Below, in pieces: positions 8,748-9,260 of a DNA stretch of 10,267 nucleotides. The first letter of the stretch is position 1; the number at the start of each line of letters is the position of its first letter. The stretch comes from a virus (taxonomy: Duplodnaviria > Heunggongvirae > Uroviricota > Caudoviricetes). The DNA lies in the IMG/VR virus record IMGVR_UViG_2660238499_000007, positions 1 through 10,267 of that record; one strand, 5' to 3'. A model generated the notes under the pieces. It saw nothing but the letters and a program-made list of their open reading frames with translations. It was not told the origin of the DNA and searched no databases. The translations under genes and the position numbers were made by a program.

Positions 8748-8767
8748 GCGCAATTTGAACGAATGCG

Positions 8768-8795
8768 AACCCGCCGAGTGCGGGTTTTCTTTTAT
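8768..8795 (+). terminator. Intrinsic terminator (first of a tandem pair)
   Basis: AACCCGC-CGAGT-GCGGGTT stem-loop followed by TTTTCTTTTAT. Confidence 0.75.
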
Positions 8796-8798
8796 CTG

Positions 8799-8824
8799 AA
8801 CTCGCTACGGCGAGTTTTGTTTTA
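8799..8824 (+). terminator. Intrinsic terminator (second of a tandem pair)
   Basis: AACTCGC-TACG-GCGAGTT stem-loop followed by TTGTTTTAT; its sequence is related to the first hairpin. Confidence 0.7.
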
Positions 8825-8836
8825 TGGAGACAAGAA

Positions 8837-9181
8837 ATGTCAGATTTGGCTATGAAGGTTTTGAAATGGCAATCAACTGGCGATGTCGGCATCAGTAGCG
8901 CAACTCTTGCCTCAATCGCATGTGGCCTGAAAAAGAATATCTATGGTCATCACTTCGGCGCTCCCCATGACGCAGCAGACTTTCGGCGATGCGTTGCACT
9001 TGTTGAGCAGATTCCAGAAATCAGAGATTCATTCGACAAGGTTGCAAAGCGCGTTCCGGCATTCAAAGGAATCCTCAACGAATGGGATTCCCTCGTTGCT
9101 CTGTTGAAGTCTGAAATGAAGATACACGGAAACAAAGCACCAGAGACTTACAGAAGAATCAGCGAGCTACGCAAGGACTAA
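8837..9181 (+). CDS. Hypothetical 114-aa protein in a terminator-bracketed cassette
   Basis: GGAGA RBS 7 nt before ATG 8837; MSDLAMKVLKWQSTGDVGISSATLASIACGLKKNIYGHHFGAPHDAADFRRCVALVEQIPEIRDSFDKVAKRVPAFKGILNEWDSLVALLKSEMKIHGNKAPETYRRISELRKD; no family recognised; followed by a terminator. Confidence 0.5.
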   Translation: MSDLAMKVLKWQSTGDVGISSATLASIACGLKKNIYGHHFGAPHDAADFRRCVALVEQIPEIRDSFDKVAKRVPAFKGILNEWDSLVALLKSEMKIHGNKAPETYRRISELRKD

Positions 9182-9220
9182 CCCGCCTCACACTCGATGA
9201 GGCCTGTTTATATCTGATAG

Positions 9221-9246
9221 AGCCGCTATATGGCGGTTTATTTTTG
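9221..9246 (+). terminator. Probable intrinsic terminator upstream of the excisionase gene
   Basis: AGCCGC-TATAT-GGCGGTT stem (with one G-U pair) followed by TATTTTTG. Confidence 0.5.
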
Positions 9247-9260
9247 CCTGGAGAATTAAG

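Follow-up and report, generated by a model that had tools for sequence, protein, structure and literature searches.

Tandem terminator-like hairpins ahead of ORF114 in a decayed lambdoid prophage: a probable barrier before the xis-int module

Why do two terminator-like hairpins stand directly before the ribosome-binding site of a small phage gene? The question is raised by a 10,267-nucleotide (nt) stretch of Caudoviricetes DNA, positions 1 to 10,267 of IMG/VR record IMGVR_UViG_2660238499_000007 (hereafter, the window). Near its right end, two tandem hairpins, T1 and T2, precede ORF114, an open reading frame (ORF) of 114 codons, and a third, T4, lies between ORF114 and the excisionase gene xis. 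A first-pass annotation, made from the letters alone, had read this arrangement as a gene insulated from read-through and expressed on its own terms or, alternatively, as an attenuator. Our analysis supports a different answer: T1 and T2 probably form a conserved tandem terminator barrier at the entrance to the xis-int module of the early-left (pL) operon, one that antiterminated RNA polymerase would read through and that phages would also share as a homology block.

The segment carrying ORF114 is the distal end of a lambdoid pL operon, the exo-xis region. It lies on the same strand as pL and cI, 3' of the recombination genes and directly 5' of xis. Its elements are as follows.

8767-8797, + strand: T1, terminator-like hairpin GAACCCGC-CGAGT-GCGGGTTT with tail TTTTCTTTTAT; -11.4 kcal/mol
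8798-8825, + strand: T2, terminator-like hairpin GAACTCGC-TACG-GCGAGTTT with tail TTTTGTTTTAT; from scan and folding
8826-8836, + strand: Shine-Dalgarno (SD) sequence GGAGA (8826-8830) and 6-nt spacer; the junction TTTTATGGAGA joins the linker to varied downstream cassettes
8837-9181, + strand: ORF114, conserved phage early protein (phage 434 ORF114 / HK022 gp32 / phrog_1229)
9185-9213, + strand: relic of a P22-type xis 5' coding sequence (codons SLTLDEAC...), from alignment with Salmonella phage SPN9CC
9220-9249, + strand: T4, terminator-like hairpin GAGCCGCT-ATAT-GGCGGTTT with an ATTTTT tail; -10.1 kcal/mol
9250-9452, + strand: SD sequence GGAGA (9250-9254) and AlpA/phi24B-type excisionase gene (9261-9452)

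Terminator-like hairpins cluster around ORF114

A consensus scan of the + strand placed hairpins at 8767-8787 (tail TCTTTTATCT), 8798-8817 (tail TGTTTTATGG) and 9220-9239 (tail ATTTTTGCCT), each with eight pairs, in agreement with the three terminators of the first-pass annotation. A fourth hairpin, at 9185-9203, was not listed there; it has six pairs and a poor T tail. These four sites on the + strand of 8750-9260 compare with an expected mean of 0.21, and none of 2000 dinucleotide shuffles reached four when analyzed with a re-implemented consensus scan that reproduces the sites of the original. Hairpins with T runs occur in this interval on the coding strand only.

T1, T2 and T4 have the anatomy of intrinsic terminators, with stems of eight pairs (4-5 of them G-C; -10.1 to -11.4 kcal/mol) followed by T runs (TTTTCTTTTAT, TTTTGTTTTAT and TTTATTTTT, respectively); the 9185-9203 hairpin, with tail CTGTTTATAT, lacks such a run. 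T1 is a paralogue of T2, and the two are related in sequence, as the first-pass annotation had noted: the arms GAACCCGC/GCGGGTTT and GAACTCGC/GCGAGTTT are related by one compensatory change of a C:G to a T:A pair, and both hairpins end in the same TTTTxTTTTAT tail.

Counterparts in lambda and HK022

Within lambda's exo-xis region, t3, t4 and t5 are given as predicted terminators (Bloch et al., 2014, PLoS One, PMC4195576, Table 4). The lambda ea8.5-orf55 interval carries TAACAATCCTCGCACTCGCGGGGATTTATTTTATCTGAACTCGCTACGGCGGGTTTTGTTTTATGGAGATGATAAATG, including AATCCTCGCACTCGCGGGGATTTATTTTATCTGAACTCGCTACGGCGGGTTTTGTTTTATGGAGA, and the orf55-xis interval carries GCCGCCTGATGGCGGTTTTTT. T2 has the sequence of the predicted t4, apart from a single A/G polymorphism that leaves the pairing intact. 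T1 occupies the place of t3 and shares its T-rich tail, whereas its stem differs and is the T2-like paralogue that travels with a DNA polymerase III theta cassette. T4 resembles t5 (AAGCCGCC-TGAT-GGCGGTTT), and both lie directly 5' of xis. Lambda and the window also agree in strand, in operon and in the distance to xis; what differs is the gene in the slot, orf55 in lambda and ORF114 in the window, and the xis that follows, which is of the AlpA/phi24B type behind T4 and of the unrelated lambda type behind t5. Searching the literature for 3' ends mapped between ea8.5 and xis of lambda gave no result.

HK022 has the order t3/t4 pair, orf55 homologue gp33, t5-like hairpin, ORF114 (gp32) and xis. 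The orf55 cassette is missing from the window, mEp234 and Stx phage 1717, where ORF114 is joined directly to the hairpin pair at TTTTATGGAGA. Between the putative barriers lies a variable slot, filled by orf55 in lambda, by both orf55 and ORF114 in HK022, and by ORF114 alone in the window, mEp234, Stx phage 1717 and the presumed phi80 remnant of Escherichia coli DH5alpha. In lambda the t3+t4 pair precedes orf55, and the upstream double hairpin is not specific to ORF114.

The lambda pL operon also contains tL1, tL2 and tL3, intrinsic terminators that are overridden by N, and its distal genes xis and int need N. The window hairpins are like these in being terminator-type elements inside a long early operon. 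They differ in that tL1-tL3 were mapped experimentally, whereas the window elements are predictions and N is missing from the window.

Linker position is tied to xis and not to ORF114

By the sequence of the hairpin pair and its ribosome-binding site (the linker) alone, we sampled 120 IMG/VR loci. The gene after the linker was orf55-like in ~77 loci, ORF114 in ~27, a 99-amino-acid gene in ~11, an 81-amino-acid gene in three and a 57-amino-acid gene in one, and among these five gene types the downstream sequence diverges right after GGAGA. Upstream, at least six different gene ends adjoin T1. In 110 of 119 linker loci a same-strand xis begins 184-1824 nt further downstream (medians 215-538 nt); it belongs to one of four types: lambda/HK022, AlpA/phi24B, P22 or TorI/phi80. 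It is therefore the distance to xis, not the gene in between, to which the position of the linker is tied.

A second sample comprised 80 IMG/VR loci carrying ORF114. Here the upstream side takes two forms, either one t5-like hairpin whose loop contains the stop codon of orf55 or a double hairpin, and the T1 stem form seen in the window accompanies the theta cassette. The T1 place is taken by at least four stems able to form a hairpin (-6.4 to -12.5 kcal/mol), behind which the T-rich tail is unchanged; in other phages, at least four forms besides that of the window stand there with this tail. Variation of the stem with a constant tail indicates selection for a hairpin followed by a T run. The sites are also unevenly distributed between the strands, with 1.46 sites per kb on the coding strand vs 0.88 on the other (75 distinct loci).

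The linker is unusually well conserved. Between the window and SPN9CC it is ~95-97% identical, whereas ORF114 DNA is 61% identical; across phages it is ~95-100% identical even where the neighboring coding DNA is 61% identical or unrelated. Of 5426 complete E. coli genomes, 1318 contain its 46-nt core (8786-8831), as do 130 phage records, including 933W, Sf6 and HK140. The DH5alpha genome has the 46-nt T2 linker and ORF114, followed by a TorI-type excisionase gene; in view of the strain and of this adjoining xis, we take the locus to be its phi80 remnant. Megablast alignments of the window with other phages break at 8782 (inside T1), 8809 (inside T2), 8825 (the end of the T2 tail) and 9215 (the end of the xis relic).

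T4 goes with the xis module

The 9185-9203 hairpin is present with ORF114 in nearly all of the 80 loci, and we considered it as the gene's own terminator. It was rejected in this role: it has no proper T tract and aligns with xis codons of SPN9CC, falling within the relic at 9185-9213, a derivation that the first-pass annotation had overlooked. In SPN9CC, an ORF that starts with MESHSLTLDEACAFLKISRPTATNW and matches HTH_17 (E 5.7e-9) begins two bases after the ORF114 stop, and the relic aligns inside it. This ORF (MESHSLTLDEAC...; positions 1854-2204 of our SPN9CC locus L211) is an intact xis of 116 amino acids between ORF114 and int that is unannotated in the record.

Among the 80 loci, T4 is found in every one that has an AlpA-type xis and is absent with the other xis types; it is a part of the leader in the AlpA-type module. 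To judge from the sequences, a terminator-like hairpin directly before xis is a feature that recurs in different modules.

ORF114 has its own ribosome-binding site and no recognizable promoter

ORF114 is intact and, as first annotated, well-initiated, with GGAGA six bases before its ATG. Only 11 nt separate the T2 tail from this ATG, and a consensus scan of the + strand from 8367 to 9260 found no sigma-70-like site, so the first-pass statement that no obvious promoter lies between hairpins and ribosome-binding site holds. The best candidate picked by eye among promoters overlapping the hairpins, CTGAAC-18-TTTTAT, agrees with the consensus at 7 of 12 positions and was rejected; transcription from it would begin within the SD sequence or beyond it. 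The lack of a promoter before ORF114 implies that the gene depends on read-through, and this part of the alternative offered by the first-pass annotation stands.

Its other part, attenuation, is not supported. Both hairpins are kept in the minimum-free-energy (MFE) and centroid structures of 77-nt and 201-nt contexts, and neither folding contains a mutually exclusive antiterminator. No leader ORF precedes ORF114 among the ORFs of the window, and no Rfam family reaches its gathering score; a sub-threshold rsmX hit over both hairpins (26.8 vs 56 bits) was taken as chance. The T2 tail pairs weakly with the SD region (six pairs, in both MFE and centroid structures).

A proposed barrier crossed by antiterminated polymerase

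Read-through of the pL operon is classically processive and starts far upstream, at N/nut or, in HK022, with put RNA. We propose that after induction or infection pL polymerase modified in this way would ignore the hairpins, so that ORF114 and xis would be made as delayed-early products of a polycistronic pL transcript. Unmodified polymerase, as in a lysogen or from stray promoters, would stop at T1, T2 or T4 and leave xis silent. The genes from exo to xis are transcribed early from pL, and translated (PMC4195576, PMC8614690). In phi24B-type modules int is reported to be constitutive and the excisionase (the recombination directionality factor) inducible (PMC7581858); where int is convergent and constitutive, as reported for phi24B, the silence of xis would matter especially, and a barrier before it makes functional sense. 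The linker, ~46-75 nt long and near-identical in many phages, may in addition act as a homology block at which recombinases swap the flanking cassettes, which would explain the breakpoints inside the hairpins. It would account, too, for two terminators in tandem here, T1 having arrived with the theta cassette and T2 being the linker shared among phages. In the window itself, with its deleted N, intact cI and broken int, the terminators are probably absolute and ORF114 is probably silent.

Several points weigh against this interpretation. A few loci have a T1 that does not fold (variant f, -1.1 kcal/mol), and SPN9CC has no terminator between ORF114 and xis, so that a barrier directly before xis is not universal. 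The lambda elements t3-t5 are themselves ARNold software predictions only (PMC4195576, Table 4). A weak or non-sigma-70 promoter beyond the reach of a consensus scan may exist. Finally, the T2 loop and spacer are conserved beyond the needs of a terminator, which may point to a further or different function, as an RNA that is processed, as a site for a protein or purely as a substrate for recombination.

In another explanation the hairpins would be mainly protectors or processing sites of RNA 3' ends and/or recombination linkers, termination being incidental. The near-identity of the linker would then be kept by frequent exchange or by a sequence-specific function and not by termination. Breakpoints inside the linker, and its conservation beside diverged or unrelated coding DNA, fit such a role, and the hypothesis of 'short conserved boundary sequences' in lambdoid mosaics is an established one (PMC3029335, citing Susskind and Botstein, 1978, and Clark et al., 2001). 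Like those sequences, the window linker is a short, near-identical intergenic stretch with differing flanks and novel joints inside it; unlike them, it is itself a hairpin pair with a ribosome-binding site, and its place is fixed relative to xis. However, the T run is kept behind every stem variant of T1, and neither an exonuclease barrier nor a homology block needs one; the coding-strand asymmetry likewise argues for termination. We consider it unlikely that termination is incidental, and a role in exchange or processing is compatible with a terminator barrier, not exclusive of it.

Integron gene cassettes offer an analogy, being promoterless single genes with imperfect palindromes at their bounds that lie beside a tyrosine recombinase gene, with a common promoter upstream. 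Yet integron attC sites measure 57-141 nt, as against the 20-nt terminator-type stems of the window, and we found no evidence that Int acts on these hairpins. Exchange at the linker is better explained by homologous recombination than by Int action.

It is very unlikely that ORF114 is a moron, that is, an autonomous lysogenic-conversion cassette shielded by the upstream terminators, closed by a downstream terminator of its own and of benefit to the host, for instance in defence. Like morons (Juhala et al., 2000; Hendrix et al.), it is an extra gene between genes that are adjacent in a relative and has a hairpin after it: absent between orf55 and xis in lambda and present in HK022, it behaves as an insertion, and terminator-like hairpins stand on both sides. 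Many accessory genes of this kind are, moreover, unannotated. Morons are, however, defined by an upstream promoter of their own, and with none before ORF114 expression independent of the operon is unlikely. Of the two hairpins downstream, the one that always accompanies ORF114 is the xis relic, which has no T tract, and the terminator-like T4 goes with the xis module and changes with it. Distant homologues of ORF114 lie in early or replication blocks, including those of apparently non-lambdoid phages. The deliberate insulation of a self-expressed conversion or defence gene, as proposed in the first-pass annotation, is thus not borne out: the linker precedes at least five genes, its place is tied to xis, no promoter is recognizable and ORF114 matches no PADLOC model.

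That the hairpins are instead a regulated leader, in which an alternative RNA fold, leader peptide, ligand or protein tunes termination locally, is highly improbable: their position directly before the ribosome-binding site without an intervening promoter and the weak pairing of the T2 tail with the SD region would suit an attenuator, but no competing fold, leader ORF or Rfam family was found in the contexts described above, the same element stands before unrelated genes, and the operon already has a well-known processive antitermination system.

As a discovery, the locus matters little. The feature is already known, in that the terminators are predicted in lambda and ORF114 was already recorded when the int-xis region of phage 434 was sequenced. 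Its residual interest lies in the fixed architecture of a slot before xis, in an unusually conserved terminator-linker and in a common gene family. A tandem terminator one small gene ahead of four kinds of xis has a simple rationale, namely that the excision factor would stay silent without antitermination, and the pair is among the clearest examples of a conserved boundary sequence for the exchange of lambdoid accessory genes. We regard as doubtful the more far-reaching possibilities that the linker is a selected, portable exchange site and/or that ORF114 founds a large uncurated family. If the former held, phage recombinases (Red, RecT, Erf) would swap promoterless single-gene cassettes in a fixed slot ahead of xis, a functionally integron-like cassette system running on homologous recombination. 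The latter would mean an early-protein family of 2410 clusters with an invariant P-x-D-x-x-D-x-x-R-C site and a confident fold without a solved relative, for which a specific host-takeover or anti-defence activity would be possible.

ORF114 is a widespread protein with a predicted helical fold

ORF114 matches phrog_1229 over its full length (residues 1-114, E 7.1e-52). Its product is 97-100% identical, and equal in length, to phage 434 ORF114 and to the homologues of mEp043, Stx phages and HK022; HK022 gp32 ('N15 early protein homolog') and phage 434 ORF114 occupy the same place upstream of xis. The gene is very common in E. coli, being present in 1805 of 5426 complete genomes, about a third, DH5alpha with its presumed phi80 remnant among them. 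A profile search returned 2410 clusters at E <= 1e-3. The distant homologues reside in early or replication blocks, in phages with hosts such as Vibrio, Klebsiella, Mannheimia and Arthrobacter, and their neighborhoods revealed no recurrent informative partner.

Remote homology searches and structure prediction, which the first-pass annotation had proposed, gave a confident model and little else. The AlphaFold (AF2) model is all-helical, with seven helices, a predicted local distance difference test score of 93.3 and a predicted template modeling score of 0.86. Across 79 diverse family members S20, P43, D45, D48, R51, C52 and W83 are invariant and W11, G18, S21, L55 and P60 nearly so; the window protein has all of the invariant residues. 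ORF114 has no match in Pfam or NCBIfam, nor do the 79 members in Pfam; PDB searches with profiles of 12 and 79 sequences returned nothing below E 0.05, and PADLOC defence models yielded zero families at E <= 0.1. A literature search for ORF114 and its protein accessions found nothing. As a guess prompted by context only, ORF114 might be an early accessory protein whose conserved acidic/Cys surface binds a host or phage partner.

Some homologues are fused to other proteins. Many database entries (P0015, P0017, P0028, P0036, P0051, P0052) are in-frame fusions of ORF114 fragments with early-left genes, the partners being dATP/dGTP pyrophosphohydrolase, ERF, Ea22 and Kil; we read them as evidence of frequent deletions in prophage early-left operons. 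A Pfam search of ten longer fused homologues gave one fusion to a CCA-adding enzyme, on a 1.9-kb contig, too isolated to interpret. This protein of 558 amino acids (Logan SRR30503383 contig, 37-1713, L207) joins a nucleotidyltransferase of the CCA-adding/poly(A) polymerase type, which has PolyA_pol, RNA-binding and HD domains, to an ORF114-like C-terminal domain at residues 451-536 and, coming from a lone short contig, may be a real fusion or a miscall.

The window is a decayed lambdoid prophage

The remaining features identify the window as a decayed lambdoid prophage, in which cI, pL, a RecT fragment, ORF114 and xis follow one another on the + strand.

5644-6357, + strand: lambda-type cI, intact
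7369-7397, + strand: pL promoter TTGACA-17-GATACT, from the consensus scan; identical to that of lambda
7369-7744, + strand: pL and leader, then a deletion joint; the N-type antiterminator gene has been removed
7741-8076, + strand: truncated RecT, a fragment
8468-8747, + strand: frameshifted DNA polymerase III theta (HolE / P1 Hot-like) pseudogene, PF06440 in two frames
9433-10121, - strand: tyrosine integrase, convergent with xis, broken into ORFs 9433-9906 and 9870-10121

The loss of N can be traced to the joint. The ORF at 7544-7744 (66 amino acids) is a deletion fusion that matches only residues 40-102, the C-terminal 63, of phrog_3486, and the match to a 99.8%-identical relative ends at window position 7555, beyond which the relative continues into an antitermination-protein remnant and ral. 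The window consequently has no functional N/nut (or put) antitermination system. The leader 3' of pL retains GGCGCTGACAAAGCGC, which we take to be a P22-type nutL boxB.

The two halves of the theta gene match PF06440 in different frames, positions 2-35 of 70 in 8468-8602 (E 3.3e-15) and positions 35-67 of 70 in 8547-8747 (E 1.1e-10); relatives in E. coli annotate it as a pseudogene. T1 lies at the 3' end of this cassette. The xis gene matches phrog_66 (E 1.9e-8), its Pfam matches (AlpA/HTH_17-like) fall below the cut-off, and relatives annotate the homologue as AlpA family, similar to the phi24B excisionase. Integrase ORF 9433-9906 matches PF00589 (E 2.4e-13), and the homologue is intact, with 392 amino acids, in relatives. 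As one piece the window is absent from complete E. coli genomes, where the best match covers 41%.

Directly 3' of cI, where lambda has rexAB, lies a BstA-like abortive-infection gene (6389-7148) that appears split into a KilA-N ORF (6389-6730) and pieces of the BstA C terminus, which lie in two frames (6770-7075 and 6837-7148). A strong terminator-like hairpin follows these pieces at 7157-7174.

Gene order in positions 1-4728 is unusual: an O-antigen-type acyltransferase gene (384-1553) is followed by a minus-strand ORF of 764 amino acids (1589-3883), labeled tailspike-like by eye only, an Arc/Mnt-type repressor gene (3924-4217) and a truncated gene for replication protein O (4225-4728). This order implies a large deletion or rearrangement that joined the tail end to the replication region. 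Two more strong + strand hairpins with T runs lie at 4933-4960 (12-pair stem, near cII) and, in the O gene region, at 4319-4359 (18-pair stem), the latter probably the iteron/inverted-repeat area of ori.

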